Assembly: GCA_030591525.1 (NCBI GenBank)
Contig: JAUVAV010000004.1
Span: forward strand, 3,307-67,306
Direction: 5' to 3'
Origin: a candidate division FCPU426 bacterium
GTDB lineage: Bacteria; Oederibacteriota; JAAXVQ01; JAUVAV01
Length of the DNA stretch: 64,000 nucleotides
Shown here one piece after another: positions 1-61,686 of the stretch (the stretch's first letter is position 1; each line of letters begins with the position of its first letter). The translations under genes were made by a program, and so were the position numbers. The notes beneath the pieces are model-generated. The model did no database searches, was not told where the DNA came from, and was given only the letters and a program-made list of their open reading frames with translations.

Positions 1-3000
1 GGGCTAAATGCTTTGATAAAGGCCGCCGCTTTATCCCTTGTCCTTGTTTCAACCGACTCTTCTACTGAAGATACTGCCTTCACAAATTTATGAATTCCCG
101 CCAAAGAAGGTGCAACCCCAATCTGCACGCTCTTCGTATCAAGTTTTGCAAATGCTTTGGCAAATTCCGTATAATCATCCTTAATTGAGTAGGTCTTCCA
201 ATTGCCGCCAATGTAAGGAATTCTTCCTTCGGTGGGTCCAACTTCCTGCGCAATTTTTAGAATCGGCATGAAATCGGTGACGCTGATGCTTTTTCCGCCT
301 ACCAAAAGACCATCCACATCCTTTTGCGATAAATATTCTTTGGCATTAGAAGCATCCGCAGAACCGCCGTACAATATTCTTACCTGTTTTGCTACTTGCT
401 TTCCGTATTTCCTGGCAATCGTTTCTCTGATAAGTGCAGCCATCTCCTGGGCGTCTTTTGGCTTTGCCGGCTTGCCATAACCACTGCCTTTAATCGCCCA
501 CCGTGGTTCGTAGGCTATAATCGTCTCAGCTACCTTTTTGCCTTCTATTCCTACAAACCCTGCCAAAACTTGTCGCCGAATAGTCTTCTCTGAATAATTG
601 TCTAATTTCTCCTCATCGGTTTCTCCCACGCATAATATATTATTTTCAAGACCTTCCGCAATTGCCGCTTGGAGTTGTTGGTTAATATCCAGGTCTGTAT
701 CCCCTAAATTACCCCTGGCCTCGGAATGACCGGCAATTATACCGGTAGCGCCGGCTTCTTTAGCATCGCCTATTGTAACCTCACCAGTCTTGGCCCCTTC
801 TTCAGGAGTTACTCTCTGGGCCAAAACTGCAATTGTCGGTTTCCCGGTTACCTCCGCACTTTTTTCACCGCCGCGCGTCCAAACCATTCCTAGCAAAAAT
901 GCCACGGATGGGACGGATGGGATTGCGGCTGGGAGCAGGTCCACACCCAGGTCAATCCCGAAGAATTGCGCGCCCCCCAAGGCAATAAAGCCTACCAGGC
1001 TGGCGGCCATGAGGACTACTTGCACCGGAACTTTTGACAAGATCGACGCTTCAGGTTTCCGCGCCCATTCCAGCGTATCTAAATTTTCCAAGCCGAGCAA
1101 TCCATCCATGCCCGCGCCGCCGCCGAGAATCATGGGGATGGATTTTATCCTTTCCCTTGTCAACCATTTATAACCTACAGCTACAAAGCCCTGCGCCAGG
1201 GTCTCACCGCCGGCTTCTACAACAAACACCTTGCCGGATTCATGCGCTTCCACTAGATTAAGAGTGAGTTCTTTTGTGCCGCCCTGGGAGCCATGTCTTG
1301 CTCGGGGCATTACAATATCGCCTTTTTTCACTTCTATCTCAAATACTCCGGGTGAACCGTTGATAAAAATTCCTTTCCAAATAGGATTTCCAATCATTTT
1401 TTTGGTCATCAGCCTTGTCTGTGGTCCATTATCCATTACCATATCCAGGTCTTCAAAACTCTTAATATTTTCTATATTTAACCCAATTACGGAATAAGTA
1501 TAAAAATCTATTGTTTCTTCTTTTATCTTTTCTGAAGAGTGAACTTCCCGCTTAATGCCGTCTATTGGCAGCACAACTAAATTCACATCCGAAGCCAACG
1601 CCTTTGCAGCGGCAATAATTGCCTCACCTTTGGTGGGCTCTTTCCGCATAACATATTCTTCGACTCCCCGGATATTATTCTGTATCCCCCAGACGATTCT
1701 TCCAATACGGCCGTCTAATTTGATTTTATCATCCACGCGATGGTTGTTTTTCATGTTTTTGCGAAGATTGTTAATGATAAGGATTTTATCCAGTTTTTTA
1801 CCTGCAAACAAGTGAAGTTTGGGCCCCTTGATTCTATTAAACGTATCGATCTTTTCCACGTCACCAAACACGTTCGGCGCCAGGAAATATTTTCCTTTTT
1901 CGGCAAACCACTTGCCCAATTTAAGCGAGACGTTTTTAAAGCGGTGCATATCCGGCGGCGCCGCGTTAACATGAAATACCGCGCCGGTCACTTCCACCAA
2001 TTTCTTGCCAAAAGCTTTGGCTATATCCAGGTAATCCGAACCTTCCCCCGAGTAGGAGCGGATATTTTCAAACAGGAAAAAGAATTTCTTTCCAGGATTC
2101 TTCACTACAATGTAGTCGCGTAGCACGCCTGCCAAATCTAATCTCTTCTCATCCATTTCAAGTTTTTTCTTAGAAACATCTAGCTTGGCAGATCGATATT
2201 TTTCTTCAAGCTCCTTTAATTTTCCCGCCTCTTTTTTTTCAGTTGTCTTTCCATCATCAATACTTTCCTTTATTCTCATAATTTCGTTTGAATAATCCTC
2301 GCGCACTCCTCTGCGATCTAATAAATCTCCCTCTATTTCCAAAAAGTCCTTCTCAATCTCATTTATGCTTTGTTTAAGTTCAGGAGTGAATTCGAGACCT
2401 TGCTCCTCAAGTATTTCCGGGACATCTTGCAGCCTGTAAGGCAGCCGGGCTATTATCACATCCAAACCGGCCCGTTCAAATGCCTTTCCAAAAACCTCCC
2501 TAATTTTGGGCATGATTATAGCAACAGTTTTGTTTTCGTCGTATATCCCTCCCGGACGTCCCAGATGGAAGAAAATATATCCTTCTTGCTCAGCCTTTTT
2601 CATTAATGCAACCGCGCTTTTCGCACTTTTAACTATTCGTGTGTCATCAGTTATTATCGTCCCTTGAGGCGTCGTCTTCAGAGACACATCCAAACCGAGT
2701 ACCGCTGATACGGATCTTGCTCCTTTCGGCGCGTTATTTTCCAGGGTGTTGTACTGGCCTTTTAATTCCCTCATTTGTTTTTCCAAAGGCGTCTCTACCA
2801 TCCCATATAAATGATTCAAAGTATTGCGTAAATATTCCTCCCGGCTAATCCCTTCTGTCTTAAAGGTTTTTCCTTTAATCGTAACTAAAGGAAATTTCTG
2901 CATTATTGTTCTTAGTTTAGAAGCATAGCCTCTCACAACAAAACCATCAGCCCCGGATTCAAAACATACCCCGGCACCGCCGAATTTGGGCGCCCCGGAA

Positions 3001-6000
3001 CTATCTATGTTTACAACCGAATAAATGCCTTGCCGCTCTATGGTTTTTTTCATTTTAGCCAGCGGATTATGGCCAGCCTTTAAAATTATAACACCCAGCT
3101 TTTTCAATAGACTTGCAATTCCATATTTGGCTATATATTCTCTTATATGATTAGGTTTGATCCTTATAGTCATATCCGAAAACAAATAAACGTAATCACG
3201 TATCACGGCCGCAATCTCGTGCGGTTTTGATTCCGGATCGTGCATAATCCCTGCCATTTCATCAAAAGCGTTTAATATTTCCCTGTTCTTGTATGTTCGG
3301 CCGTTATACGTAATCTCAAAATCCCCGCCATCATTGACCGGCAGCCAGCCGTGCGGAGTTATTTCGCCGAAAACATTCTGGAGGTATAGTTCCGTTTGCC
3401 CATAGTAGAAATCGGCTATTTTATTCAGTATCGGACTTTTAACATAATTTTCCGTAGTGACGATTTCTTCATCAAGAAATCCTATCGCTATCAATTCGTT
3501 GATTTCTTTGAATGTATTTCCCCCCCAGCCTTTATGAAAAACCCAGTCTTTTAAATTCCAGATATCTTCATAGGCATGGGAATTCAACCATTCAAAATAT
3601 TGATAAGTCCATACGTTATCTTTGCCTAAAGCCTTGTTGATTTCTCCGTTCTCACCTTTAATTGCCTTTTCTGATCTACTACTTACTTTTTCAAGAATAT
3701 AGGCAGAAAGCCAAATAGCCATCTCCCATTGAGCTTTTTCATCACTATTTTTATCTGCTTCTGCCCGCCGTCCAGTGTATCCCAGCACAAGCTGGTCATG
3801 AACTTCCTGCCACCACGCGACAGAAGTCCTGGCAATACCGTTTAATCCCACATAAGGTTCAGACACCCCTATTTCTTTAAAGTACCCGGCAAAATTCTCC
3901 CAGGCTTTTATATGCTCCGGCAGTAAATCCGCCGTGATTTCTTCATAAAGCTTACTATCCATAAAAGCCTTGACGTCCCCCCGAATTGCTTCAACTGTTT
4001 TTCCTTGAAAATTTTCCTTTATGGCAGTCTCACATTTGTCGGCTATTCCATTTTTAATTCCTTCAATTTCTGTTTCGATATCTTTGATAACCGCATTTTC
4101 AAATATTTTCTGCACTTCTTCATACTTTGAGCATAATTCCGCCCACCATTCCTTGCTATCAACCTTTTCAGGATGCATCTTTCGTTCATTTTCCACTAAA
4201 GTTTCTATTCCTCTATCGCCCTTGTAATCAAATCCTTCGAACCAGGGCAGATGGTACGCGCGAATAGCGCCGCCCTTATATGCATCATGGTTTCCCAAAA
4301 CCAATTTAACTTTATCCGGAGCAGCCATTTTCAGGTTCAATGCTAAGAAAAAGCACTTAACCGGGTCATCAGCGCGGTCCGGCAAATCCAGATTGATTTC
4401 TATTCCGCCTTTAATGGTTTTCAATGATAAGCCTTGCTCATTCATCTGCTCTTCAACATCACGCTTCCAGTCAAGCAGGCCTTCAAATCCGCATGCCCTA
4501 TTTAAATATTCGCTTACATAATTGGTAAACTTGTTTATTTCTCCATGAATATCGGAAATAGTAAGAATCCGGGGTATCTGGCCTGTGCCTTTCTCATTCA
4601 GTTCTTTTTCAATCTCCCGGGTTAAGATTTTGATCTGTTTTCGACGCATTTCGGGATCTTTATGAGCCTTGATGCCTAATTCCTGGATTATCCGCTCTTC
4701 TGCTATATTTTGCGTGAACCAATATGTTGTATATTTGCTTTCCTCCACCTTCATGGCCACACCTTGAGACTCCTTACTCAAAAGCGATTCCGTCGCAAGG
4801 CGATTGAGCACAATTCTCGCTGATCTTGTGGGAATCTTCAACCTGTTCGCGACCTGCCTGGCGGACATGGGTTCGCCAAAAGATATTAACTCCTGGAGAA
4901 CACGCTCAGCCTCCGTTACATGCACTGGCTTCTCTTTTACCTGCAGCAGGGCTTCAATCATTGCTTTTATACGGGATATCTCAGCAGCTTCATTGACGAT
5001 CCGTTCTGATTCTTCCTTGGAATACATTCCCAGCAAAGCGTGCGCGGCATTTACATTATCCGGTACCACGTCGGACTCCTGTGGCACGGCGAAAACAATC
5101 TTGATCCTGCCGGGAATCTGAGAAGCCCGAACCTGCGCCATAATGATCATGGGATGATTGGCGCCCAGGATTTCTTCAGCTACTGAGGAATTAATAGTCT
5201 CAAACAGCGTGGAAATTGAGAATACGCCATGGGGGAAATCGATGACTGCCATGCGGGACTGCTTCTGCAAAGCTTCGATAACCATTTGAGGGCTTAAACC
5301 CGGAGCGTCAAATTCCATGATATGGACATGATAATGACTGGTAGGAATCATGGAAGATGGCATATTAATGTCAGCCAGAATATCGCCATAATCACCAGTT
5401 ATGGTTTGCTCAAAATCCTCTCTGGTATGATGTGTATCCGCCTGAGCTACTCCGCCTGCTTGGTCTCCAAAATCACTGCCCGGAATATACATAAGGTCAC
5501 TGATGCTGGTTATTTTTTCATGACCCTTAAGTCCGGATAGCAGCGTTTCACATCCATAAATCCCGGCGTCCTCTCCCTCCTGACGCTTGATATCCATGGC
5601 ATATCCGAAAGCAACATTTACTTCACCTGGAATATGCGATGGCATCATTTTAAAGAAAATGCTATTCTTCGGGCTCGCGGAGTCTCTCAGCGCTGCCAAC
5701 TCCGAGGTTTGTAATTTTGTTCCTGGGAGGGGCGTAAATGTCACAGAAGAGTCATCTGATCCTTGCATAATTAAGTCACGTATTTCTGCGGGATCTTCAA
5801 TGCCTCTAATAGTAGCCATATGAATATAAAATCCCTTGGCCGAGGTTTTGACACGATCAACATTGACCGGCACACCTCCCAGGAATTCACTTACCGCTTT
5901 AGATGATTCCTGATGGCTGATTTCGATCTCAGCTCCATCGACAACACTCTTTGATCCGGGATCGTTTTGCCTTCTCATCGCAATGTCACCAATGTAGAGC

Positions 6001-9000
6001 TTAATCTTAAGGCCTGCAGCCTTAATTGCATTCCTGATACCAGTGTAAATACGGTTAAAACCCGTGGTATTACAAGACACGACTATGGCTGATTCCACAC
6101 CCTTTAAACTTTCGAAATCCGACGTATCTAAAGAAAAAGCCCGGTTACCAGCTACTTCCGGGCCTTCGCCGCCCTGCCAGAGCCTGGCTTCAATGACATT
6201 CTTCTCCGCATAGGGTTTATAGATTTCTTCATTATTAATCCAGCCGGTTCTTGTTTCCGGAGCGCCTTTACCGCCGGTAGAAGCATCCACGACAATAGCT
6301 TGCTGTCCATCTTCACGCAATTTATCCAACAGATCGATAATAGAGCCTTGATAGGGCAACCCTGCTGCTTGAGCCGCTTCAAGATTTTTTTCCAAACCAT
6401 TAGCTATATACAAAGGATAGCCCTTAACTATTGCATCATAAGTCAAAGGCTTGGCTCTTCCTTCTTCGTCCACACTACCAGTATTGACAGCACCGATGAT
6501 TTCAAATCCGCATTTCCGGTAAAGATCAGCCACTTTCTTGCCAATGGTGCCATATCCATTGATAATGACTCTTTTCCGGGGCTGGATCAGGGCTGAGTAT
6601 CCTCCCTCGACACGCGGGCTTTTCTTAAAGGTCAGTAATATTTCCTTGCCATCTATGTTATACGCCATCTGGAAAAATTCAGCTTTGCCCTGGTAAATTT
6701 TTTCGACTTGCATCCCATTCGTTAAATAATGAAGATATCTTATTATGCCTTTTTCGCCGCTTTCGCGAAATGCCGCAGCTCGATTTGGGTCACTTTTGTT
6801 GAATTCAAGAAACTTCTTGAATTCATCCATCTCGCCAATTTCCACTTCATAGCCAACGCCTTGTTTAGCTACCATGGTGCCTACTTCTTGCAGAACATCA
6901 GCATAAAAAGCTGCCCGGTTGGCTTTTCTGATGGTGATTTTCGGTTCAATAACTAATCTTGATGCTATTTGTTCGACGCTGAAAGGCACATCACCGGAAG
7001 TCACCTCTCGCGACCCTGTGTCGGCTCCTGTACCCGGCGTCATTACCATCCCAATTAGAGCTAGCAGCGCCATAATCGAAGTAAATTTGCTCATCCCAGA
7101 CGAGAAGAGGCTGCGATTCCATATAGTATTCGCGATTTGGCTGATTTGCGGAGATGCGATCACAATAGCTCCGGCAATAACCAATCCTCCAAATACCCAG
7201 ACATTAAGACCGGCAAAAGCAAAAAGGCCCGCGCCTACTGCTATGACCGCAGTGCCAACAAGATACGGCAGGGCCGGGCGAACGGTTTTTAGCGCTCTGG
7301 TTACTCCGGTGTCTAAGAATTTCTGGCCCCGGTTCAGCATTCCGGCCGGCCCATTCATCATCTCACTTAAACCCGATTGTACTCCGCCGAACGCCGATGT
7401 AATTGAGGGTGCTGCCATCATTGCTCTTCCGGCCATTATTGGCATGACCTGGGCCATGGTGGCCTTCAGCGCTACCTTGACCATGCCGCCCTGCACTACC
7501 CGGCCTTGCATCAATTGGGCTTCAATCCCAGCTAAACTCCGGTTATCTAAAATGGAGAATTCAAAACCATTCAAAACCCGCTGGTGCTTGGCTAAGGCTT
7601 TCAGGCTTATACCATGCCCTATCGGCCGAACGATTAAAGAAGCTTGCAGAGCCGGAAACGGCACTTTTACTGTTCGAGTTTCCACATCCATTCTCGCGTT
7701 GTCCCAATCCGGCTTGGCTTCCGGATGGTTAGCCATTGCTTCTGTTACAAACACGCTAAGTTCTGGAATATTGATTTTCCCCTCTTCTATGCCGACTTTA
7801 GTAGTGTCTTGGAAGAATAAGTGTGCCATCATTGTATTGAAAATCCCGGCATCATGCATAAACGAGGATTCTAATCCCATAATATTCTGGTTCTGCGCCA
7901 GAAGCTTTTCCAAAGGCGTACGCTTGTTTCTCAGCAGGGCAAAATAGGGATTTACTATGTCGTGATGACAAAGGCAGGGTTTCACGCATACATACGATAT
8001 GTTATGGCGTTCCAATTCCTGGAGCACTTCTTCCTTATGATAACCGCCGGTTACCATCATCGCGAGCTTGGTCTGCTGCTTATCCATGCAGGCCAGGACG
8101 TTCTCCACAAACGCCAGGCTACGTTCATCAGCCACGCGGTAGAAAGTTCTTACTTCTTCAAGATAACTGTCCAGCTTATAGACCTCGGCATCCAGCATGA
8201 ATAAACCTTCTTTATCATGCCGGCTGATAAATTCCAGAAAACTCCCTACTTTGAATCCTTCGGGATTTTTACGAAATTGTACTAAATCCTTGGGAGCGGC
8301 GGAAATATTGACCAGTTTTTCTATAATATCCAGACGATGCTGAATTATATCCATGATCTGCTGATCGTCCGTGGTATACAACCGGCTGCGCAGCTGTTGG
8401 TCCAACTGGTCCAACTCATTAAACAGATCGTCGGAATCCACGTTTTCCGGGAAAATGTTCTGCCGCCGCGATACATAGCGCGCTAAATTCGAATAGGGTT
8501 TCATGTCCAGCTTTTGCCGCACCCCGTAATCATACATGTTTACGCTGTATTTCAAGACCGAGATATCGCCCTCGCGGAAAGCCTGCTTCTTCTCATCGAT
8601 CTGAGCCAAGGCCTTATTATATATGTTGCCCTTCAACTCATCGAGGGTCTCACGCAGGTCAAAGATATATCCCTGGCTCTCGTTGTTGAGAAAACTCATC
8701 ACGTTTTTCCGGTTGTCATCATACAGGGCCTGGGTCTCAATACCCTCCAGACGAATGGGATGCTTTCCCGTGGCCGCGTACAGTTCGGCCCCTGTGATCT
8801 TTCCCTGTTTCATCAGATAGTGAGCTGTATCCTTTTTCACCTTTTCCAGGGGAAAGTCCGCGAGCTTGGAAACATTAATCGGTATTGACTCGCCTTCCAC
8901 GGTTACCAGGTTCAAGCCATGCTTTCCTGCCAGGTCATCTATCATGCCGGCAATGTTATTCTGCACCTCGTAATTACAGTGCAGGTCCTGGACGCAGACC

Positions 9001-9275
9001 ACCACGCGGTCCTGGCCCGAGAAAGACTGCGTAACCGTCCCAAGCTTGTCCGGAATTTTAATGGGTTGATTGTTATATTTGATTTGCTGTTTTGCTGACG
9101 CGTAGGAACGTGCTTCAAATGCCCAGGTCATATATGGAAGGACAAAAGTGACTGTAACCAGGAGTGAGATAATCTTCGCCCATACCCTGCGTTGCGGTTT
9201 ATGCCATTCCGACATAGAAGCCATCTGATTTACATCCAGGTCCATACTGCGGTTTTGTTTAAAAAAATCAAACAT
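1..9275 (-). CDS. Giant multidomain protein, partial: at least 3,091 codons with the 3' end beyond the left window edge. It fuses a TM/TraB-GumN-like N-terminal region, class II GAPDH-like, wHTH-like, class 3 FBPase-like, PGK-like and TIM-like domains.
   Basis: The minus-strand start lies at 9275, with ATG at 9273-9275 preceded by AAAGGAG at 9 nt spacing and an AT-rich upstream region. No minus-strand ORF in this frame appears in the ORF track for 9.2 kb, consistent with one open frame lacking an in-window stop. Frame (codons on 3k,3k+1,3k+2) was hand-verified at the N-terminus (MFDFFKQNRSMDL...AKIISLLVTVTFVLPYMTWAF). It was also verified at 8940-9050 (DRVVVCVQDLHCNYEVQ), 6063-6080 (VVSCNTTG), 4911-4980 (EISRIKAMIEALLQVKEKPVH) and 4539-4553 (SDIHGE). 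Further checks at 2551-2570 (FFHLGRPGG), 900-1080, 735 (IAGHSE), 495-512 (IAYEPRWAI), 363-380 (RILYGG) and 195-210 (IGGNWK) were also all in-frame. Plus-strand ORFs across this region are short, low-complexity antisense artefacts. Confidence 0.7.
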   Translation of the reverse strand, partial: MFDFFKQNRSMDLDVNQMASMSEWHKPQRRVWAKIISLLVTVTFVLPYMTWAFEARSYASAKQQIKYNNQPIKIPDKLGTVTQSFSGQDRVVVCVQDLHCNYEVQNNIAGMIDDLAGKHGLNLVTVEGESIPINVSKLADFPLEKVKKDTAHYLMKQGKITGAELYAATGKHPIRLEGIETQALYDDNRKNVMSFLNNESQGYIFDLRETLDELKGNIYNKALAQIDEKKQAFREGDISVLKYSVNMYDYGVRQKLDMKPYSNLARYVSRRQNIFPENVDSDDLFNELDQLDQQLRSRLYTTDDQQIMDIIQHRLDIIEKLVNISAAPKDLVQFRKNPEGFKVGSFLEFISRHDKEGLFMLDAEVYKLDSYLEEVRTFYRVADERSLAFVENVLACMDKQQTKLAMMVTGGYHKEEVLQELERHNISYVCVKPCLCHHDIVNPYFALLRNKRTPLEKLLAQNQNIMGLESSFMHDAGIFNTMMAHLFFQDTTKVGIEEGKINIPELSVFVTEAMANHPEAKPDWDNARMDVETRTVKVPFPALQASLIVRPIGHGISLKALAKHQRVLNGFEFSILDNRSLAGIEAQLMQGRVVQGGMVKVALKATMAQVMPIMAGRAMMAAPSITSAFGGVQSGLSEMMNGPAGMLNRGQKFLDTGVTRALKTVRPALPYLVGTAVIAVGAGLFAFAGLNVWVFGGLVIAGAIVIASPQISQIANTIWNRSLFSSGMSKFTSIMALLALIGMVMTPGTGADTGSREVTSGDVPFSVEQIASRLVIEPKITIRKANRAAFYADVLQEVGTMVAKQGVGYEVEIGEMDEFKKFLEFNKSDPNRAAAFRESGEKGIIRYLHYLTNGMQVEKIYQGKAEFFQMAYNIDGKEILLTFKKSPRVEGGYSALIQPRKRVIINGYGTIGKKVADLYRKCGFEIIGAVNTGSVDEEGRAKPLTYDAIVKGYPLYIANGLEKNLEAAQAAGLPYQGSIIDLLDKLREDGQQAIVVDASTGGKGAPETRTGWINNEEIYKPYAEKNVIEARLWQGGEGPEVAGNRAFSLDTSDFESLKGVESAIVVSCNTTGFNRIYTGIRNAIKAAGLKIKLYIGDIAMRRQNDPGSKSVVDGAEIEISHQESSKAVSEFLGGVPVNVDRVKTSAKGFYIHMATIRGIEDPAEIRDLIMQGSDDSSVTFTPLPGTKLQTSELAALRDSASPKNSIFFKMMPSHIPGEVNVAFGYAMDIKRQEGEDAGIYGCETLLSGLKGHEKITSISDLMYIPGSDFGDQAGGVAQADTHHTREDFEQTITGDYGDILADINMPSSMIPTSHYHVHIMEFDAPGLSPQMVIEALQKQSRMAVIDFPHGVFSISTLFETINSSVAEEILGANHPMIIMAQVRASQIPGRIKIVFAVPQESDVVPDNVNAAHALLGMYSKEESERIVNEAAEISRIKAMIEALLQVKEKPVHVTEAERVLQELISFGEPMSARQVANRLKIPTRSARIVLNRLATESLLSKESQGVAMKVEESKYTTYWFTQNIAEERIIQELGIKAHKDPEMRRKQIKILTREIEKELNEKGTGQIPRILTISDIHGEINKFTNYVSEYLNRACGFEGLLDWKRDVEEQMNEQGLSLKTIKGGIEINLDLPDRADDPVKCFFLALNLKMAAPDKVKLVLGNHDAYKGGAIRAYHLPWFEGFDYKGDRGIETLVENERKMHPEKVDSKEWWAELCSKYEEVQKIFENAVIKDIETEIEGIKNGIADKCETAIKENFQGKTVEAIRGDVKAFMDSKLYEEITADLLPEHIKAWENFAGYFKEIGVSEPYVGLNGIARTSVAWWQEVHDQLVLGYTGRRAEADKNSDEKAQWEMAIWLSAYILEKVSSRSEKAIKGENGEINKALGKDNVWTYQYFEWLNSHAYEDIWNLKDWVFHKGWGGNTFKEINELIAIGFLDEEIVTTENYVKSPILNKIADFYYGQTELYLQNVFGEITPHGWLPVNDGGDFEITYNGRTYKNREILNAFDEMAGIMHDPESKPHEIAAVIRDYVYLFSDMTIRIKPNHIREYIAKYGIASLLKKLGVIILKAGHNPLAKMKKTIERQGIYSVVNIDSSGAPKFGGAGVCFESGADGFVVRGYASKLRTIMQKFPLVTIKGKTFKTEGISREEYLRNTLNHLYGMVETPLEKQMRELKGQYNTLENNAPKGARSVSAVLGLDVSLKTTPQGTIITDDTRIVKSAKSAVALMKKAEQEGYIFFHLGRPGGIYDENKTVAIIMPKIREVFGKAFERAGLDVIIARLPYRLQDVPEILEEQGLEFTPELKQSINEIEKDFLEIEGDLLDRRGVREDYSNEIMRIKESIDDGKTTEKKEAGKLKELEEKYRSAKLDVSKKKLEMDEKRLDLAGVLRDYIVVKNPGKKFFFLFENIRSYSGEGSDYLDIAKAFGKKLVEVTGAVFHVNAAPPDMHRFKNVSLKLGKWFAEKGKYFLAPNVFGDVEKIDTFNRIKGPKLHLFAGKKLDKILIINNLRKNMKNNHRVDDKIKLDGRIGRIVWGIQNNIRGVEEYVMRKEPTKGEAIIAAAKALASDVNLVVLPIDGIKREVHSSEKIKEETIDFYTYSVIGLNIENIKSFEDLDMVMDNGPQTRLMTKKMIGNPIWKGIFINGSPGVFEIEVKKGDIVMPRARHGSQGGTKELTLNLVEAHESGKVFVVEAGGETLAQGFVAVGYKWLTRERIKSIPMILGGGAGMDGLLGLENLDTLEWARKPEASILSKVPVQVVLMAASLVGFIALGGAQFFGIDLGVDLLPAAIPSVPSVAFLLGMVWTRGGEKSAEVTGKPTIAVLAQRVTPEEGAKTGEVTIGDAKEAGATGIIAGHSEARGNLGDTDLDINQQLQAAIAEGLENNILCVGETDEEKLDNYSEKTIRRQVLAGFVGIEGKKVAETIIAYEPRWAIKGSGYGKPAKPKDAQEMAALIRETIARKYGKQVAKQVRILYGGSADASNAKEYLSQKDVDGLLVGGKSISVTDFMPILKIAQEVGPTEGRIPYIGGNWKTYSIKDDYTEFAKAFAKLDTKSVQIGVAPSLAGIHKFVKAVSSVEESVETRTRDKAAAFIKAFS
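3..200 (-). other. Start of a second TIM-like domain, truncated by the window edge.
   Basis: IPYIGGNWKTYS...FAKLDTKSVQIGVAPSLAGIHKF matches the TIM N-terminus (GGNWKmN...vgvaPP) directly after the first TIM-like domain. The protein continues past position 1. Confidence 0.4.
195..890 (-). other. Triosephosphate isomerase-like domain of the giant protein.
   Basis: GAKTGEVTIGDAKEAGATGIIAGHSEARGNLGDTD corresponds to GAfTGEiS...viiGHSERR. ILCVGETDEEK corresponds to CIGEt.eeRE. IAYEPRWAIKGSGYGKPA corresponds to AYEPVWAIGTGk.A, with catalytic Glu and His present. VRILYGGSADASNAKEY corresponds to iiYGGSV, and DVDGLLVGGKSI corresponds to DiDGaLVGGASL. Four of these motifs were checked in frame. The N-terminal NWK Lys motif appears degenerate (ALGGAQFFG). 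Confidence 0.75.
1090..2680 (-). other. Phosphoglycerate kinase-like domain of the giant protein, with a ~110-aa charged coiled-coil-like insertion.
   Basis: TIITDDTRIVKSAKSAVALMKK...IFFHLGRPGG matches the PGK N-terminus (kItDDtRI...SHLGRPkG). FFFLFENIRSYSGE...VFHVNAAPPDMHR matches LLLENvRFhpgEE...YVNDAFGtAHRAH. MIGNPIWKGIFINGSPGVFE matches vvWNGPmGVFE. ILGGGAGMDGLLG matches ISTGGGAsLElLeGK. The insertion EIEKDFLEIEGDLL...KLKELEEKYRSAKLD lies at about 2120-2450. Confidence 0.65.
2700..4750 (-). other. Class 3 (Firmicute Fbp-type, metallophosphoesterase-fold) fructose-1,6-bisphosphatase-like domain of the giant protein.
   Basis: The segment ILTISDIHGEINKF...LDLPDRADDPVK...LVLGNHDAYKGG carries the DxH...GD...GNHD calcineurin-like motifs in the order and spacing of B. 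subtilis Fbp (SDLHGEY...GDIYDRGP...WGNHDVLW). Later, GEITPHGWLPVNDGGDFEITYNGRTYKNREILNAFDE matches LIHGCIPVDENGNME...GRELLDVFE, and ILKAGHNPLAK matches GHIINGHTPVK. Confidence 0.6.
4780..4930 (-). other. Winged-helix (HTH)-like segment embedded in the giant protein.
   Basis: The segment reads VHVTEAERVLQELISFGEPMSARQVANRLKIPTRSARIVLNRLATESLLSKE, with MarR/ArsR-like helix-turn-helix spacing. It was assigned by eye only. Confidence 0.3.
5000..6575 (-). other. Archaeal-type (class II) glyceraldehyde-3-phosphate dehydrogenase-like domain of the giant protein.
   Basis: The translation gives IINGYGTIGKKVADL (NAD-binding GxGxxG) ... AIVVSCNTTGFNRIYTGI (type II GAPDH active-site Cys motif SCNTTG, in frame at 6063-6080). 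It continues with IAMRRQNDPGS ... IPTSHYHVHIMEF ... IKIVFAVPQESDVVPDNVNAAHALL, which matches the type II GAPDH C-terminal region VHQESDVIPENIDAIRA. Confidence 0.65.
7040..7300 (-). other. Internal cluster of 2-3 transmembrane helices within the giant protein.
   Basis: The translated segments PYLVGTAVIAVGAGLFAFAGLNVWVFGGLVIAGAIVIASP and FTSIMALLALIGMVMTPG are strongly hydrophobic. Confidence 0.5.
7960..9000 (-). other. N-terminal ~350 aa domain of the giant protein, possibly TraB/GumN/Tiki-like.
   Basis: It contains ...GQDRVVVCVQDLHCNYEVQNNIAGM... and later ...AMMVTGGYHKEEVLQEL... The GxxH and GGxH-like motifs are reminiscent of the TraB/PrgY/GumN superfamily. This assignment is weak and by motif only. 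Confidence 0.25.
9125..9190 (-). other. N-terminal transmembrane helix of the giant protein (AKIISLLVTVTFVLPYMTWAF).
   Basis: This is a hydrophobic 21-residue stretch about 30 aa after the start, read directly from the reverse complement. Confidence 0.55.
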
Positions 9276-9540
9276 TTTGGTTTTGCTCCTTTCAGCATTT
9301 GAACAAATTTTTTAATACATAAAATATTTTCAATTTTCGAAAGTATATCAGACAATTTGCGCAATGTCAAATTACGAAATAAAAAAAATATTACTATTTA
9401 TGCGTAAAATCCCTTGTGTTGCATTATGAAACGTATTATGCTGTTTTTATTTATTTTTTTCTGATGAGATTAGGTGAGGGTGCGATTTTAAGTCAAAAAG
9501 GGAGGGGAATACTTGAATTCTGGACTAAATGCTCAAGCTC
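9276..9540 (-). promoter_or_regulatory. Putative promoter/5' UTR of the giant gene.
   Basis: A 260-bp AT-rich intergenic stretch immediately upstream of the RBS AAAGGAG carries multiple TATAAT/TTGACA-like hexamers. No specific box was assigned. Confidence 0.3.
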
Positions 9541-10062
9541 CTAGAAGTCTGTCAGACTTAAGTCTTTTTTTATCCAGGTTTCCAGAAAAACCTTGGCCTG
9601 GTCATAAATGCCGGGATTCTGGCTCTCACGCGGACCCGCGATATTCAAGACCTGTATTTTGTGTCTTATGATCCACTGCCGTATGATCTCCGGATCGCAG
9701 GAACAGTCCAGGTCAAGAATCAGGCAGGGCTTGTTTAAACGCCTGGCCAGGGCCGCGGTCAGAGCCGTTCCTCCGCTTACTTTTCCCCGCTTTAAAACCA
9801 GGGTTCCATCCGAATCCCTGACATTCCATCTGGTCCGCTTTGAGTAATCGTCATCCGGCGTTGCCCGGAGAGGATACTTTCCGGGTATGCGCCCGTCTTC
9901 CGCGCTCCGGCCCCGGGGACACCAGCCTCCACATGATATCTTCATATTTAAAGCTGCATCCAAGGCAGCCCGGTCCACGCCGGTTTGTCCGCCCGAGACT
10001 ATCTTGAGCGGCCTTTCTGGATTGTTATTCTTAGGCATAGATTTAGGTTCCGATCTGTCCAT
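9541..10062 (-). CDS. SLOG-fold / putative molybdenum-carrier (PF12694-like) family protein.
   Basis: It carries the motif KIVSGGQTGVDRAALDAALN, typical of the MoCo-carrier/YpsA-like SLOG Rossmann proteins. Confidence 0.45.
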   Translation of the reverse strand: MDRSEPKSMPKNNNPERPLKIVSGGQTGVDRAALDAALNMKISCGGWCPRGRSAEDGRIPGKYPLRATPDDDYSKRTRWNVRDSDGTLVLKRGKVSGGTALTAALARRLNKPCLILDLDCSCDPEIIRQWIIRHKIQVLNIAGPRESQNPGIYDQAKVFLETWIKKDLSLTDF

Positions 10063-10092
10063 GGGAGCCTGAGCAATTAGTTGCTCAAGCTC

Positions 10093-11046
10093 CTAGTCTT
10101 TAAAAGGACGCCGGCGGGCGAAATCCGGTTTATAATGGCTTGGTCCGGCTGTTTCCTGGACCCAGCCGTGTTCCAGGCCCAAGCGCTCCATCTCTTCCAC
10201 TACTTCGCCGTACTCCTCCGGGCTTAGGTACCGCCCCAGGTCCGGATCACAGGCTACGGCGGGAATTGGCGAGTACTGCGACATCAAGGATATATGAACC
10301 CCGGGCGAGAGCTCTTCCGCGACGAACCTGAGAACCCGCTTGCTGTTCTCCACTTGCCCGGGCAGAACCAGGTGGCGGACAATCAGCCCGGACTCGATTA
10401 CGCCTGTTGGGTCGAGCTTCAAGCCGGGCCCTTTTTGACGGAACATCTCCTGCAAGGCCCGGGAAGCAACTTCCGGATAATCCGGCGCATCCGAGAGGCG
10501 GGCGGCCAGAGCCGTATCCAGGTATTTCAAATCCGGCAAGTATACCTGCACCCGGTCTTCCAGCGCAGCGATACGCTCCGCTTTATCATAGGCATTGGTA
10601 TTCATCACAAAAACCGGATTCCGGCCGCGCTCTTTCAGACCCTGCATAAGCATTTCCATTTGAGGGAGAACATGAGAAGGAGAAACAAACCCTACGCACT
10701 TTACGCCTGATTCCATTATCTTTTCGATTTGACGTATGGTTTGCTCCAGAGTGAGTTTCCGGCTGAGAACGGTTTCCCGGTTGCGGCTAATCTGGTAGTT
10801 CTGGCAATATACACACTGGAGGTTGCAGCGGCTGAAAAATATGTTACAGATCCCGCTCTTTCCGGTCAATACCGGCTCTTCGCCGCGGTGAAGGCAGATA
10901 GAGGCTATCTCAAACCCGGCCCCGGTCTGGCAATACCCGTAAGACCCGTGGAACCGGTCAACCCGGCATTCACGGGGACAGCAAACGCAGTTTGACAGAC
11001 ACGCCAGGTATTCAGCCGATGGTCCGGGAGAGCGTTCGCTAATCAT
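10093..11046 (-). CDS. Radical SAM protein of the PflA-like / AmmeMemoRadiSam type.
   Basis: The canonical CNLQCVYCQN (CxxxCxxC) is present, plus an N-terminal extra Cys cluster CLSNCVCCPRECRV...YCQT. Confidence 0.6.
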   Translation of the reverse strand: MISERSPGPSAEYLACLSNCVCCPRECRVDRFHGSYGYCQTGAGFEIASICLHRGEEPVLTGKSGICNIFFSRCNLQCVYCQNYQISRNRETVLSRKLTLEQTIRQIEKIMESGVKCVGFVSPSHVLPQMEMLMQGLKERGRNPVFVMNTNAYDKAERIAALEDRVQVYLPDLKYLDTALAARLSDAPDYPEVASRALQEMFRQKGPGLKLDPTGVIESGLIVRHLVLPGQVENSKRVLRFVAEELSPGVHISLMSQYSPIPAVACDPDLGRYLSPEEYGEVVEEMERLGLEHGWVQETAGPSHYKPDFARRRPFKD

Positions 11047-11067
11047 GTAAACGGCTGAAGGCCGTTG

Positions 11068-11445
11068 TCAGCTAACTGCCTGCCCGAGAATCTCCTTTAC
11101 TTTATCGAGGAGTTCGTCCGGGTCAAAGGGCTTGATAATGTAATCATCGCCCCCGGCCGCAAATCCCCGCTGGGCGTCTCCGGGATTGCCCAGAGCGGTT
11201 AAAAATATAACTTTAATACCCTTGTTTTGAGGGTGGTTTTTCAACTCCATGCATACCTCATACCCGTTCATGCCGGGCATCATGATATCCAGCACTATCA
11301 GATCGGGACGCCGGTCCTCTACCTGCTCCAGGGCGTCAAAACCGCTGCTGGCGGTCCTCACTTGATATCCTTCCACAGACAAACTCATTTTCACCATTCG
11401 GGCAATGGCCGGCTCGTCGTCAACTACCAGTATGTCTTTGTTCAT
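11068..11445 (-). CDS. Stand-alone response regulator (CheY-like REC domain).
   Basis: The sequence ILVVDDEPAIARMV...DLIVLDIMMPGMNGYEV...IIKPF carries the conserved Asp and Lys signature. Confidence 0.8.
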   Translation of the reverse strand: MNKDILVVDDEPAIARMVKMSLSVEGYQVRTASSGFDALEQVEDRRPDLIVLDIMMPGMNGYEVCMELKNHPQNKGIKVIFLTALGNPGDAQRGFAAGGDDYIIKPFDPDELLDKVKEILGQAVS

Positions 11446-27552: not shown

Positions 27553-29379
27553 TTAAATAATCCGCGTTTCCTCTCCCAGGTCAAAATCCAACCCGGCACA
27601 ACCCTGGTTTAAAGCCACAGTTATGGGAAGCTGTCCGGCCACCGGGCCCCAAAGCTGGCGGGGACCGGGCGAGGAGAAGCAATCCTCTCCGGCCCAGCGT
27701 TCCCGGACCGAGAGAAAATATTTAAAAGCAGGCGAATCGGTCTCGACCAGGGCTTTTTCAATCACCATCTCATCCCGGCCGTGCCGCCGTTCTACATGTA
27801 TCAACCCGGTCAGGGGCAGCGCCAAGGCCTCGCCGCCACAATCCAGGGCGCTTATAGCCGCCATGTAACCGGTCTTGCCGGCCAGGGCCAGAGACCCGGC
27901 CGTTAGCCCTAAATTAAAAGTATAAGCCGCGTCAAACCGGCTGGGCGCTCCACAACGTCCTTCATACCCGAAGAAATGACTATTAGTGGCAAACCGGGAC
28001 TTTACAAACCTTTCGACTTCTTCCGGCGCTAAATCTATCTGCTCTTCCGCCTGACCGATAAAGGGCGCGGGATTGACTTTCATTTCGTGCAGACGTATAT
28101 TTACCATCTCAATTAATAATTTTTCGGTCGGAATCTGGGAAACCTGCAGATTACCGTGGGAATCGCGGTCCAGGAGAAGCATGTTCTCAAACTCATGCGG
28201 CAAGGAAGCCATCAGTTTGACTGACTCGGCCGATATTTTTCCATAGATGAAATCCTTTTTCTCCGCCATGGTATTAAGTTCGCTTAAAAGCCGGGCCGAA
28301 TCAGCCATGACCTCATTAAGTTCCTTTATCAATATTTTCATCTCCGGGATAAACTCGATCAACCCTTCGGGAATTAAAATCACGCCATAATTTATACCCC
28401 GGCCCGCCCGCCGGGCCACAGACCGGCAGATAATATCCACGATCTGGTGCAAAGAGAGTTTTTTTTCCTCGAGTTCTTCCGAGATAAAGGCGATGGCCGG
28501 CTTGGTCTGTAAGGCCACTTCCAGGGCCACATGGCTCGCGCTGCGTCCCATGAGCTTGATAAAATGCCAGTATTTCCGGGAAGAAGGTGTGTCCTGGAGG
28601 ATGTTGCCGACCAACTCGGAATATATTTTCGTGGCCGTATCAAAGCCGAAGGAAATCGGCAGCAACGCTCCTTCCTGGAGATCGCCGTCAATGGTTTTGG
28701 GAACCCCGAGAACCTGCACGCCCCGCCCGTCGGCATGCACATTCTCAAAAAGATACTCGGCCAATACGGCGGCATTGGTATTGGAATCATCGCCGCCGAT
28801 AATCACCAGGGCATCCACGCGCTGGTCACGGCAGACCGCTTTAACCAGCTTGAACTGCCCATGATTCTTGATCTTGGTACGGTCCGTACCCAGAAAATCA
28901 AACCCGCCGGTATTCAGGAGCCGGTTTAAATCTTCTTCCTTGATTTCAAATAAACTGCCTCCCAGCAGACCTTTTGGCCCGTGTTTCACGCCCAGTAAGA
29001 CATTATCCGGTCCCAGGGCTTTTTTTAAACCCGCTAAAACATTATGCCCCCCGGCCGCCGGACCGCCGGAAAACAGGACTGCCACGCGTTTCCCGGATAC
29101 CAGGGGACGGTTCGCAATATCCGCCTTTAAAACGCGGTCCCCGGTCTGGGGATATAATTTCGGAAAAGCTTCGGCCACCCGGTTTAAATCACGGTTTTCC
29201 GCCAGCTTCTCTTCCGACGGTTTGAATCCGGCCGGCGCGATTTTCTTGTTTTCAATAAAAGCTTTTTTCACGGGCAGAGGAAGATTCCTCACCTCTCTCT
29301 CAAAAAGCGAGCGGTTTTTCTCGGTTTCTTCCCATACCCGGATCAAATCCGGATTGGCGGTTTTAGTGCTGGATGACAT
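27553..29379 (-). CDS. pfp: Pyrophosphate-dependent phosphofructokinase (long type, 608 aa).
   Basis: It carries the motifs GGPAAGGHNV, IIGGDDSNTNAA (Asp at the ATP/PPi-discriminating position), GVPKTIDGDL and LMGR. Confidence 0.8.
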   Translation of the reverse strand: MSSSTKTANPDLIRVWEETEKNRSLFEREVRNLPLPVKKAFIENKKIAPAGFKPSEEKLAENRDLNRVAEAFPKLYPQTGDRVLKADIANRPLVSGKRVAVLFSGGPAAGGHNVLAGLKKALGPDNVLLGVKHGPKGLLGGSLFEIKEEDLNRLLNTGGFDFLGTDRTKIKNHGQFKLVKAVCRDQRVDALVIIGGDDSNTNAAVLAEYLFENVHADGRGVQVLGVPKTIDGDLQEGALLPISFGFDTATKIYSELVGNILQDTPSSRKYWHFIKLMGRSASHVALEVALQTKPAIAFISEELEEKKLSLHQIVDIICRSVARRAGRGINYGVILIPEGLIEFIPEMKILIKELNEVMADSARLLSELNTMAEKKDFIYGKISAESVKLMASLPHEFENMLLLDRDSHGNLQVSQIPTEKLLIEMVNIRLHEMKVNPAPFIGQAEEQIDLAPEEVERFVKSRFATNSHFFGYEGRCGAPSRFDAAYTFNLGLTAGSLALAGKTGYMAAISALDCGGEALALPLTGLIHVERRHGRDEMVIEKALVETDSPAFKYFLSVRERWAGEDCFSSPGPRQLWGPVAGQLPITVALNQGCAGLDFDLGEETRII

Positions 29380-32926: not shown

Positions 32927-33051
32927 GCGTTTAGTCTGTTTTTGAGAGTAGATAGTAGAAAGTGGACCGCATTTGAGATATTTTATCTAATTTCTACTAT
33001 CTATTCTCAAATGCTCTGGAGCCTGAGCAACTAACTGCTCAAACTCCTAGT
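32927..33051. repeat. Inverted-orientation copy of the ~120-bp MITE-like element.
   Basis: It is bounded by ggagcctgagcgtttagtctg on the left and ggagcctgagcaactaactgctcaaactcctag on the right, between the RND gene and pfk. Confidence 0.6.
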
Positions 33052-43822: not shown

Positions 43823-43850
43823 GTAGGGGCGTTTAATTAAACGCCCCTAC
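43823..43850. repeat. REP-like perfect palindrome GTAGGGGCGTTTAATTAAACGCCCCTAC.
   Basis: It was read directly, and an identical copy lies at 61590-61617. Confidence 0.7.
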
Positions 43851-43975
43851 AACTGTCGTTAATACCATAACCAACTACTATTATTTTACATTTCAAGCAA
43901 AAAAACAAGGTAAATAAATCATCCTAATGAAATTATATCTCACCAGCCGAAAATTTCAAAGAGTTCCAAATTTAA

Positions 43976-61530: not shown

Positions 61531-61657
61531 GGGCTACGCATGCGTAGCCCCTACACACCCGCACCAGGATATGTCGCACCTTACCGTGGGTAGGGGCGTT
61601 TAATTAAACGCCCCTACATCGCAAATCCACCGGGCCGGCATGGAAGCCGGCCCCTAC
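61531..61657. repeat. Three consecutive REP-like hairpins between the FIST gene and the tlpA-like gene.
   Basis: They are gggctacgcatgcgtagcccctac at 61531-61554, gtaggggcgtttaattaaacgcccctac at 61590-61617 and ggccggcatggaagccggcccctac at 61633-61657. Confidence 0.65.
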
Positions 61658-61686
61658 AAAATTCCAACCCCATACTTCCTACACGG

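Follow-up and report, generated by a model that had tools for sequence, protein, structure and literature searches.

What is the protein encoded at the left edge of the 64,000-nucleotide stretch of FCPU426 DNA analysed here (the window), where a single minus-strand frame appears to string together several enzymes of triose-phosphate metabolism? The initial annotation proposed a gluconeogenic assembly line. The reverse complement of window positions 1-9275, translated and recounted, contains 3,091 codons without a stop, and the frame is open as claimed from the ATG (9273..9275, minus strand) to position 1, where the ORF, of at least 3,091 codons, leaves the window. The start described as strong holds up: AAAGGAG (9286..9292, minus strand), read from the sequence 5' of the ATG, places GGAG 10 nt upstream, and there are in-frame stops upstream of the ATG. 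No second, overlapping ORF of similar size was found. The C-terminus lies beyond the window edge, and the 3,091 residues are the first part of the protein. Every motif attributed to the translation is there (SCNTTG, SDIHGE...GNHD, FFHLGRPGG, GHSE, YEPRWAI, ILYGGS and DGLLVGG). Of the four enzymes read from these motifs, a type II GAPDH, PGK and TIM stand, with catalytic motifs intact, whereas the class III FBPase does not, the ORF having no match to PF06874. The visible part of the ORF lacks an aldolase, and its domain order differs from the order of the pathway. The enolase and two PFKs reported elsewhere in the window are indeed encoded separately, the enolase being canonical. A cpYpsA protein is the neighbour of the giant ORF, and no tRNA or Rfam features were found within the window.

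An ORF of this kind might be an artefact: a misassembly, a degenerating pseudogene, or individual gapdh, fbp, pgk and tpi genes that are read through by chance. In favour of this, the DNA probably comes from a metagenome assembly, and the window edge cuts the ORF. Against it, the 3,091 codons are stop-free with all catalytic motifs intact, more than 100 family members are built alike (see below), and every domain junction recurs in independent NCBI, ENA and JGI assemblies. The relative P0112 aligns with aa 958-1874 (GAPDH, winged-helix and phosphatase domains) in a single HSP at 65% identity, P0120 covers the phosphatase-PGK junction, P0001 covers the PGK and the TM hairpin behind it, and the permuted TIM is also present in P0223. 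Since the junctions are reproduced in other assemblies, the chimera about which concern had been raised is excluded, misassembly is rejected, and an artefactual origin is effectively refuted, with a negligible probability.

The N-terminal TM helix and the internal TM cluster claimed for the protein were both found by hydropathy. The helix (aa 31-54; 9114..9185, minus strand) would be a signal-anchor with a cytoplasmic N-terminus, and TM cluster 1 (aa 667-750; 7026..7277, minus strand) comprises about three helices. Between the two lies what had been called an unknown domain of about 350 aa. A domain is indeed present, but it is not nondescript: it is a head (aa 60-478; 7842..9098, minus strand) that has the alpha/beta fold of TIKI, EreA, ChaN and TraB, is hydrolase-like, and defines a family of more than 100 giants. 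K+R averages 3.5 before the first helix and 0.77 after it, the count before exceeding that after in 82 of 86 family members, and this positive-inside bias places the head outside the cytoplasm. The poorly conserved region that follows (aa 479-666; 7278..7841, minus strand), where conservation falls past aa ~475, has no Pfam match.

The invariant residues of the head are D97-x-H99-C100, E127, R385-S386 and G410-G411-x-H413. At the sequence level, D97-x-H99, E127 (28 residues on) and H413, a putative 2His/2-acid catalytic signature, parallel E3900-x-H3902, E3930 and H4030 of RRSP (PMC6254334), in the same order and with the same 28-residue spacing. Compared with the TIKI/EreA/ChaN/TraB-PrgY/RRSP superfamily, the head has a helical insert of ~180 aa and an invariant Cys beside the first His, and its first acidic residue is Asp where the superfamily has Glu. 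Fusion to a giant enzyme-bearing chain, as seen here, is unreported for the superfamily. The Pfam models TraB, Erythro_esterase and Cofac_haem_bdg gave no match to aa 1-660 at E<=10, nor did PDB searches, by profile from the head alignment and by sequence with aa 1-860, return a match; no second copy of the head was found. The predicted activity of the head is that of an esterase or a peptidase, exerted outside the cytoplasmic membrane.

This head is what ties the giant ORF to other proteins. At least 111 giants of 1,703-5,348 aa have only aa ~15-472 in common with it, and 147 head loci occur in GTDB representatives, in Firestonebacteria, FCPU426/Goldbacteria (Goldiibacteriota) and related MAGs; the scanned set did not include the source genome, and its best match was the sister MAG CBDUZI01. 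A single FCPU426 genome holds at least 19 head loci among the best 79 of the 147. Behind the head, each giant carries a different enzyme cargo. The cargo includes PPDK/PEP synthase, enolase, iPGM, PGK, GAPDH, TIM, aldolase-like, phosphatase, SIS, NTP-transferase and glycosyltransferase domains, and also unrelated ones, namely SecA-like domains (the paralogs P0028 and P0076 bear SecA_DEAD), kinases, methyltransferases, HD and HTH/sigma domains. Because of this unrelated cargo, the lean towards gluconeogenesis and glycan synthesis is a trend and not a rule. No PFK-like domain was found among the 261 retrieved proteins. With more than 100 headed giants bearing unrelated cargo, the giant ORF is not a one-off metabolon but a member of a modular family.

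How the modules may be exchanged is suggested by the P0001 locus, which shares 85% DNA identity with the window over the upstream region, the head and TM cluster 1, followed by a cargo indel of ~4 kb. The identity breaks at window position ~7035, the boundary of TM cluster 1, which suggests that modules are shuffled at TM clusters in the headed family. Cargo also diverges much faster than the head, the PGK domain being 42% identical to that of P0001 against 81-91% for the head. No canonical gap, pgk or tpi was found in 1.16 Mb of related loci, which are centred on giant genes and hence uninformative on this point.

Whole-protein scans against Pfam, NCBIfam and the PDB were swamped by TIM and missed the PGK, and segment-wise scans were needed to delimit the cargo. 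A region of ~150 aa (aa 751-900; 6576..7025, minus strand) without a Pfam or NCBIfam match leads into the type II (archaeal-type) GAPDH-like domain (aa ~901-1420; 5016..6575, minus strand), which has the Rossmann motif INGYGTIGK and the catalytic SCNTTG. NCBIfam scans of the giant-ORF segments that lack a domain assignment were likewise negative. The GAPDH domain matched PDB entries 2yyy and 1cf2 and aligns collinearly with 2yyy, 1cf2, 2czc and 1b7g over two stretches, SCNTTG being identical; between the two stretches sits an insert of ~165-220 aa (aa 1085-1305). The predicted HMM match was obtained, to the type II model of NCBIfam (PRK04207, E=1.6e-33), but it stays below the equivalog cutoffs, at 116.2 against 185 bits for PRK04207 and 82.1 against 232.9 for TIGR01546. 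Behind it lies a probable winged-helix domain (aa ~1454-1530; 4686..4916, minus strand) with nine sub-threshold Pfam matches, several of them to the winged-helix families MarR_2, GntR, TrmB, CggR_N and ScpB and others to DUFs (DUF7342 best), none of which reaches its cutoff.

The next module, of 585 aa (aa 1556-2140; 2856..4610, minus strand), combines a PPP/ApaH-type core with a helical insert of ~300 aa. Its metal-ligand motifs are all kept (DxH, D..DR, GNHD, H and GHN), and together with its alpha/beta sandwich they make it a calcineurin-like metallophosphoesterase of the PF00149, PPP/ApaH type; the segment scores 22.1 bits against the generic Metallophos model (cutoff 21.5). It had been read as a class III FBPase, for which a match to FBPase_2 (PF06874) was the proposed check. 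Neither the segment nor the ORF matches this model even at E<=10, and we reject the reading as a bona fide class III FBPase. FBPase_2 is reached weakly and collinearly through relatives (P0220 at 31 bits against a cutoff of 27, P0120 at 22.6), and none of the ten stand-alone-size relatives that we scanned scored as a bona fide FBPase_2. Among solved structures, its closest folds are those of protein phosphatases and ApaH; the PDB contains no class III FBPase, and a PDB search with the segment sequence gave no match. An hhalign comparison with B. subtilis Fbp reached 90.6% probability, which is a lead only. A word-indexed homolog search (the segment and a 26-sequence profile) returned P0112 alone, and an exhaustive HMMER search found 192 representatives of the module in 1.84 billion proteins.

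Class III FBPase (Bacillus Fbp/YydE) is likewise a metallophosphatase of ~600 aa, and it shares with the module a large helical insert and the motifs DxHG, GDxxDRG-like and GNHD; the module differs in lacking a PF06874 match, and its domain context is gluconeogenic. Class II aldolase-like domains are joined to it in P0223, P0121, P0192, P0135 and P0117, PGK and enolase in P0120, and GAPDH in P0112; TIM is also among its fusion partners. Its repeated fusion to these domains makes a sugar-bisphosphatase role plausible, and it is mainly from domain co-occurrence that an FBPase role is plausible. Any kinship of the module with class III FBPase is remote at best, and it could instead be a protein phosphatase or an Ap4A hydrolase, like its nearest folds. 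In concept only, its fusion to a class II aldolase-like domain in relatives recalls the archaeal/bacterial bifunctional FBP aldolase/phosphatase, which likewise couples both chemistries in one protein. The bifunctional enzyme has folds wholly different from the pairing seen here, in which two separate domains are involved.

The PGK domain (aa ~2180-2740; 1056..2738, minus strand) is divergent and carries a coiled-coil-like insert. The match to PF00162 that had been predicted appears when aa 2131-2740 are scanned alone (49 bits, cutoff 27) but not in the whole-protein scan. The motifs FFHLGRPGG, DNGPQT, NGSPGVFE and AGGET are kept, and the domain is collinear with yeast PGK, through weak matches. 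A TM hairpin found by hydropathy (aa 2743-2800; 876..1049, minus strand), for which P0001 has a TM cluster at the same position, separates the PGK from the TIM.

The TIM match is strong, with 195-204 bits against PF00121 (cutoff 20.1) and matches to PDB TIMs at E about 1e-35, but its order is non-canonical. Strands beta3-beta8 come first (aa 2806-3012; 240..860, minus strand), with GHSE, YEPRWAI, ILYGGS and LLVGG, and match PF00121 positions 52-244 at 204 bits; beta1-alpha1-beta2-alpha2 follow (aa 3018-3072; 60..224, minus strand), with the catalytic Lys in PYIGGNWK and with VQIGVAPS, and match positions 1-54 at 21.8 bits, a score that exceeds those of 500 shuffles. The protein thus has a circularly permuted TIM in place of the canonical beta1-beta8 order. 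P0223 keeps the identical order at 51% identity, and the catalytic and phosphate loops PYIGGNWK, IIAGHSE, AYEPRWAIKGSG, ILYGGS and LLVGG are all present here and conserved there; P0001 likewise shows a non-canonical order of TIM segments. As no beta3 follows beta1-alpha2 in the giant ORF or in P0223, a second, tandem copy of TIM was rejected. In the giant ORF the first 19 aa of a non-TIM tail (3..59, minus strand) precede the window edge; in P0223 the tail beyond the TIM runs for ~180 aa and then stops. A metagenome scan with aa 2701-3091 found no match, and one with the permuted-TIM alignment found canonical TIMs alone, aligned over query residues ~2-236 (most ending at ~200-217) and never spanning the transposed beta1-alpha2.

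The initial annotation knew of no membrane-tethered fusion of the whole 3-PG to F6P segment, but giant membrane proteins of this kind have precedents in two preprints: Omnitrophota giants are TM-rich and carry TIM, FBPase, aldolase, PGI, PGM and PPDK domains (West-Roberts et al. 2023, bioRxiv 10.1101/2023.11.21.568195; 10.64898/2026.06.07.730766). Its suggestion of an Omnitrophota-style giant gene was right in kind. The Omnitrophota Archaeovorins share with the headed family many TMs amid divergent central-carbon enzymes, glycosyltransferases, methyltransferases, HATPase and SecA-like domains, canonical housekeeping copies in the same genomes, and hosts in PVC-adjacent candidate phyla. However, the headed proteins measure about 2-5 kaa, 5- to 40-fold less than the 10-147 kaa of the Omnitrophota giants, and at 1.7-5.3 kaa the family falls short of the length that defines an Archaeovorin (>=10,000-30,000 aa). 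SecA_DEAD and HEAT domains, also Archaeovorin criteria, were not found by Pfam in the visible 3,091 aa. Their hosts are mainly Firestonebacteria, FCPU426/Goldbacteria and related MAGs and not Omnitrophota, and neither preprint mentions a TIKI/Ere-fold head, C39 or S8 peptidase N-termini being reported instead. The bifunctional PGK-TIM of Thermotoga maritima (PRK13962) likewise has PGK and then TIM on one chain. Against that model the giant ORF scores 163.5 bits (cutoff 883), the TIM part alone matching; it differs in the TM hairpin between the two domains, in its highly divergent PGK and in its permuted TIM, all within a chain exceeding 3,000 aa.

Taken together, the giant ORF is probably a giant polytopic membrane protein of the headed family that carries a triose-phosphate enzyme block as membrane-tethered cargo. 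Like that of every member, its chain begins with the N-in signal-anchor helix, followed by the ~420-aa extracytoplasmic TIKI/EreA/ChaN/TraB-fold head and a TM cluster, behind which a paralog-specific string of divergent cytoplasmic-type enzyme domains would be held to the membrane by further TM hairpins. Here the cargo runs from type II GAPDH through winged-helix, PPP-fold metallophosphatase and PGK to the TM hairpin and the permuted TIM. From the three TMs of cluster 1, the two of cluster 2 and the cofactor demands of the enzymes (NAD(P)H, ATP), we infer that this cargo lies on the cytoplasmic face. Such an array might convert 3-phosphoglycerate to triose phosphates and, with an aldolase from elsewhere, continue to fructose-6-phosphate, its phosphatase probably being a sugar-bisphosphatase distantly related to class III FBPase. 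To judge from its sequence, this cargo, with a PGK at 49 bits, a GAPDH below cutoff and large inserts, could have changed substrate or lost activity.

A stricter version would make this protein a unique, self-contained machine for the cell's gluconeogenesis, which channels substrates from 3-PG to F6P and includes a bona fide class III FBPase. Three pathway enzymes and a phosphatase do share one polypeptide with catalytic motifs intact, and relatives join the same phosphatase to aldolase-like and TIM domains. Yet the protein is not unique, as over 100 paralog-like giants bear unrelated cargo, it lacks both an FBPase_2 match and an aldolase, its order is not pathway-like, and its very divergent domains share the window with canonical glycolytic genes. 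Omnitrophota with similar giants retain canonical GAPDH, PGK and enolase (10.64898/2026.06.07.730766); these copies, together with the canonical enolase and two PFKs in the window, indicate that the fused enzymes are probably extra copies and weaken a housekeeping role. We therefore regard the stricter version as doubtful.

Two further explanations, both of which we consider unlikely, concern what becomes of the chain and on which side it works. As a polyprotein precursor, it would first enter the membrane and then be processed to individual enzymes, either by the TIKI-like head or by another protease, fusion being a device for delivery or co-expression. Cleavage of Omnitrophota giants has been proposed in the literature, TM clusters and long linkers separate the modules, and the head appears to keep the signature of a superfamily that includes site-specific endopeptidases (TIKI, RRSP). 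That superfamily also includes esterases and haem binders, however, no conserved cleavage motif was seen, and most cargo junctions probably face the inner side of the membrane, opposite the predicted position of the head. Alternatively, the enzyme-like domains could form an Archaeovorin-like surface array, exposed to bind or to act on host, prey or environmental sugars. DeepTMHMM places some such cargo, including similar glycolytic domains, outside the cell in Omnitrophota giants (bioRxiv 10.1101/2023.11.21.568195; 10.64898/2026.06.07.730766), the head is itself predicted to be extracytoplasmic, and the fast divergence of cargo relative to head is reminiscent of conflict systems. Crude helix counts for TM cluster 1 are odd in 60 and even in 24 of 84 members, the even estimates suiting an exposed array, and flank charges favour neither side. 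Against exposure, three TMs predicted in cluster 1 and two in cluster 2 would put all cargo of the giant ORF on the cytoplasmic side, GAPDH and PGK depend on NAD(P)H and ATP, neither of which is to be had outside the cell, and SecA-like, sigma/HTH, kinase and methyltransferase domains, which work in the cytoplasm, occur among the cargo of the family.

To conclude, the headed giant-protein family and the permuted TIM appear to be undescribed so far. For giant multi-enzyme membrane proteins in Omnitrophota and nearby phyla, it is a recognised puzzle whether the chains stay intact, on which side of the membrane their enzymes lie and why divergent second copies exist. The shared head offers a simple handle for finding members, as the loci in GTDB representatives illustrate, and at 2-5 kaa the family is small enough to be experimentally tractable. 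The permuted TIM, known from two proteins, would represent a rare case of natural permutation in the archetypal (beta/alpha)8 enzyme, and the phosphatase module is a candidate new FBPase class. The coherent cargo, which leans gluconeogenic (PPDK, an FBPase-like module fused to aldolase, no PFK), yields a concrete, testable hypothesis, which we put forward only tentatively. Firestonebacteria and Goldbacteria might possess a second, membrane-tethered gluconeogenesis and glycan synthesis spread over TIKI-headed giants, leading from pyruvate through PEP, triose phosphates, FBP, F6P and sugar nucleotides to glycan. Each paralog would be one block on the cytoplasmic face, the giant ORF supplying the GAPDH/FBPase-like/PGK/TIM block with an active, naturally permuted TIM, and the head would act on the exported product or the envelope.

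Translating the reverse complement of window positions 1-9275 gave a stop-free frame of 3,091 codons, which starts at the ATG at 9273-9275 behind an AAAGGAG ribosome-binding site, with the upstream frame closed, and exits the left window edge, just as the initial annotation had described. Indeed, every enzyme motif quoted there was found in the translation of this giant ORF, and hydropathy analysis recovered both the N-terminal TM helix (aa 31-54) and the internal TM cluster (aa 667-750, about three helices), together with a TM hairpin at aa 2743-2800. The giant ORF is a real feature, and the interpretation originally attached to it is partly supported. The remainder of the window is ordinary bacterial chromosome, carrying purC, LpoB, AcrB, two-component systems and OmpA/CHU_C-type envelope proteins as well as, again as annotated, a canonical enolase (403 bits) and two PFKs encoded apart from the giant ORF; tRNA and Rfam features were sought across the window and none was found. 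The PFK genes (27553-29379 and 33047-34381, minus strand) lie 3.7 kb apart, one being typical (444 aa, 332 bits) and the other long and divergent (608 aa, 121 bits). Immediately 5' of the giant gene, the minus strand at 9541-11445 encodes a SLOG-family YpsA protein in circularly permuted form (208 bits), along with a radical SAM protein and a stand-alone response regulator. Three large envelope proteins of 739, 892 and 862 aa (38832-43726 and 46397-48985, minus strand) have FlgD-Ig-like and CHU_C (type IX secretion signal-like) matches, with a C-terminal OmpA in two of them, an unusual combination. A 25-nt sequence at 43827-43851 and 61594-61618, with an identical copy at 10996-11020 of a sister-genome locus (L001), may be a dispersed repeat element; a further stretch of about 90 nt, at 61590-61668, shows 72% similarity.

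A search with the full protein retrieved at least 111 giant proteins of 1,703-5,348 aa, which share with the query only aa ~15-472 (34-81% identity in the best 90 of the at least 111), almost always at their own N-terminus. The "~350-aa unknown domain" of the initial annotation is thus not a one-off: this TIKI/EreA/ChaN/TraB-fold domain, hereafter the head, recurs in these giants and at 147 loci in GTDB species representatives, with a single copy in the window. Among the best 79 of the 147 loci, one FCPU426 MAG accounts for 19, its sister MAG CBDUZI01 for 10, two Firestonebacteria for 9 and 6, and a Goldiibacteriota for 6; weaker matches occur in giants of Elusimicrobia, Endomicrobia, Chlamydiota and Omnitrophota. 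One published study treats FCPU426 as the same group as Goldbacteria and places Firestonebacteria and Elusimicrobia next to it (PMC7031533).

Family members are built alike: the N-terminal TM leads into the head, a TM cluster sits near aa 600-750, and the enzymatic cargo behind it is interspersed with further TM clusters. It is modular, as precomputed Pfam content varies from protein to protein. From the Pfam accessions, we take this cargo to comprise PPDK/PEP synthase, enolase with TIM and PGK (in the relative P0001), iPGM, SIS, glycosyltransferases, NTP-transferase, amylomaltase, aldose epimerase, HAD and NUDIX hydrolases, methyltransferases, protein kinases, HATPase_c, HD domains, SecA_DEAD, sigma/HTH, serine acetyltransferase with aminotransferase, and radical SAM. 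Tail-to-tail BLAST matches over the C-terminal ~700 aa link 77 of 112 members to at least one other, pointing to at least one conserved C-terminal module in addition to the head; a Pfam scan of the 750-aa tail of P0001 (aa 2790-3541) found nothing. One distant head-bearer (P0096, 5,024 aa, JGI) has, in its precomputed Pfam annotation, AAA_5, AAA_6-type, WD40 and many recent DUF-type models, a set that reads as typical of dynein/midasin-like AAA+ motors and would be unexpected cargo for a bacterial membrane protein.

In the alignment of heads, D-L-H-C, E, E-G, R-S, G-G-x-H and N-P-Y are invariant. Pfam and PDB sequence searches with the head found no match, and its AF2 model is confident (pLDDT 84.9, pTM 0.81). 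Across 86 members, K+R averages 3.5 in the 15 residues before the first TM helix and 0.77 after it, a direction that holds in 82 of the 86, and the N-terminus is therefore predicted to be cytoplasmic and the head to lie outside.

Because whole-protein domain scans of the giant ORF were dominated by TIM, separate segments were scanned. The archaeal-type GAPDH call was upheld by the NCBIfam type II GAPDH model (E=1.6e-33), though below its equivalog cutoff, and the segment aligns collinearly to four archaeal GAPDH structures over aa 902-1084 and again over aa 1306-1419, with SCNTTG identical and an insert of ~165-220 aa between the two parts. Scanned in isolation, the PGK segment scored 49 bits against PF00162 (cutoff 27), and its HLGRP, D.GP, NGxPGVFE and GGET motifs align collinearly with yeast PGK, confirming that assignment. 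Between the N- and C-terminal lobes of PGK is a charged, coiled-coil-like insert (aa ~2285-2375, window ~2150-2420) with weak EzrA and Rad50 matches; the PGK of P0001 has a similar one. Nine sub-threshold matches at aa ~1454-1530, several to wHTH families, point to a probable winged-helix domain. Segment scans of aa 479-666, aa 751-900 and the GAPDH insert detected no relatives.

The TIM call holds (PF00121 195-204 bits; PDB TIMs at E about 1e-35), with the catalytic Lys, His and Glu and all phosphate loops kept, but the canonical order does not. The strong match covers profile positions 52-244 (aa 2812-3008), starting directly after the TM hairpin, and the ~55 residues that follow it (PYIGGNWK...VQIGVAPS) match positions 1-54 at 21.8 bits, above cutoff and outscoring 500 shuffles; beta3 was not found after this transposed segment. 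Judged by segment order, the TIM is circularly permuted. The same arrangement is seen in P0223, a protein encoded on a contig from Hainich groundwater that has 51% identity in this part; there, ~180 non-TIM residues and then a genuine stop codon come after it. The order of TIM segments in P0001 is likewise non-canonical. Metagenomic canonical TIMs align to residues ~2-236 of the permuted domain only, most ending near 200-217. No natural TIM permutant turned up in a limited literature search, and the conserved permutation appears to be new.

The initial annotation had also named a class III FBPase, an identity that aa 1556-2140 do not bear out: FBPase_2 (PF06874) has no match there, Metallophos alone matches (22.1 bits vs 21.5), and the FBPase_2 links of relatives are weak and collinear (P0220, 31 bits, profile positions 155-227; P0120, 22.6 bits, positions 377-448). 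Alignment by hhalign to an approximate B. subtilis Fbp sequence gave 90.6% probability over the C-terminal third, a lead only. A 4-sequence profile of the phosphatase, run against 1.84 billion representatives, matched no more than 192 proteins. Most of these are large or giant, the longest having 7,357 aa, and the TIKI-like head is present in at least 46 of 149 phosphatase-module proteins; the metal ligands (motifs DxH, D..DR, GNHD, H and GHN) do not vary among relatives. The module appears to be distinct and new. Domain context is a stronger argument for its role than FBPase_2 similarity. A class II aldolase-like domain (GatZ_KbaZ, F_bP_aldolase) directly follows it in P0223, P0121, P0192, P0135 and P0117, PGK and enolase follow in P0120, and GAPDH precedes it in P0112 and the giant ORF. 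Given these fusions and the absence of a PFK-like domain from the 261 retrieved proteins, a sugar-bisphosphatase is plausible, at about an even chance or slightly better. On the Hainich contig (L080, 4968-9389), the product of the gene after P0223 (phosphatase/aldolase-like/cpTIM) is of PPDK/PEP-synthase type and, at 1,473 aa, exceeds the usual PPDK length by about 500-600 aa; it fits the gluconeogenic theme of the family.

Chimeric assembly can be ruled out, since the domain junctions recur in other proteins: P0112 (an NCBI MAG) matches aa 958-1874 in a single HSP at 65% identity, P0120 runs across the junction of phosphatase and PGK, P0001 has PGK with the TM hairpin, and P0223 has the permuted TIM. 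The P0001 locus is 85% identical in DNA to window 9451-7035, that is, 175 nt of upstream non-coding sequence, the head and TM cluster 1; beyond this identity collapses, a ~4-kb block (aa ~748-2100) of the giant gene is absent from P0001, and the PGK domains of the two proteins share just 42% identity. Since the 85% identity stops after TM cluster 1, the head end seems to be conserved or exchanged and the cargo remodelled at TM-cluster boundaries.

The initial annotation knew of no described membrane-tethered fusion of the whole 3-PG to F6P segment. The kind is in fact known from Omnitrophota, where TM-rich giants bear divergent enzymes of central carbon and sugar metabolism, among them TIM, FBPase, aldolase, PGI, PGM, PPDK, GTs and SecA_DEAD (10.1101/2023.11.21.568195; 10.64898/2026.06.07.730766), and such giants occur across sibling phyla (PMC12057145); the cargo block found here, however, appears to be new. 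The comparison with Omnitrophota-style giant genes holds for the kind of protein but not for Archaeovorins, from which the giant ORF differs in size, SecA/HEAT content and host, though it would work in a similar manner. The head is mentioned in neither Omnitrophota preprint and is covered by no Pfam model; as a family-defining N-terminal module, expanded in Firestonebacteria and Goldbacteria, it appears to be new.

With 3 + 2 TM helices, all cargo of the giant ORF would lie on the cytoplasmic side, with access to NAD(P)H and ATP. GAPDH, PGK, TIM and the probable sugar-bisphosphatase would there form an array tethered to the membrane. Cargo may instead be exposed outside the cell, where published predictions place some similar cargo (10.1101/2023.11.21.568195; 10.64898/2026.06.07.730766), and family members differ in their roughly estimated number of helices in TM cluster 1, although the helix count of the giant ORF itself argues for the cytoplasm. 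The polypeptide may also be cleaved into separate proteins. The cargo has diverged strongly and is probably accessory: canonical enolase and PFK genes are present in the window and canonical GAPDH, PGK and enolase in 176/176 complete Omnitrophota genomes with similar giants (10.64898/2026.06.07.730766). Across the family, cargo spans most of the gluconeogenic route plus glycan synthesis, with no PFK-like domain among 261 retrieved proteins and with PFK and pyruvate kinase both missing from the giants' precomputed Pfam content, which suggests a second, membrane-organised copy of gluconeogenesis and glycan synthesis spread over paralogs.
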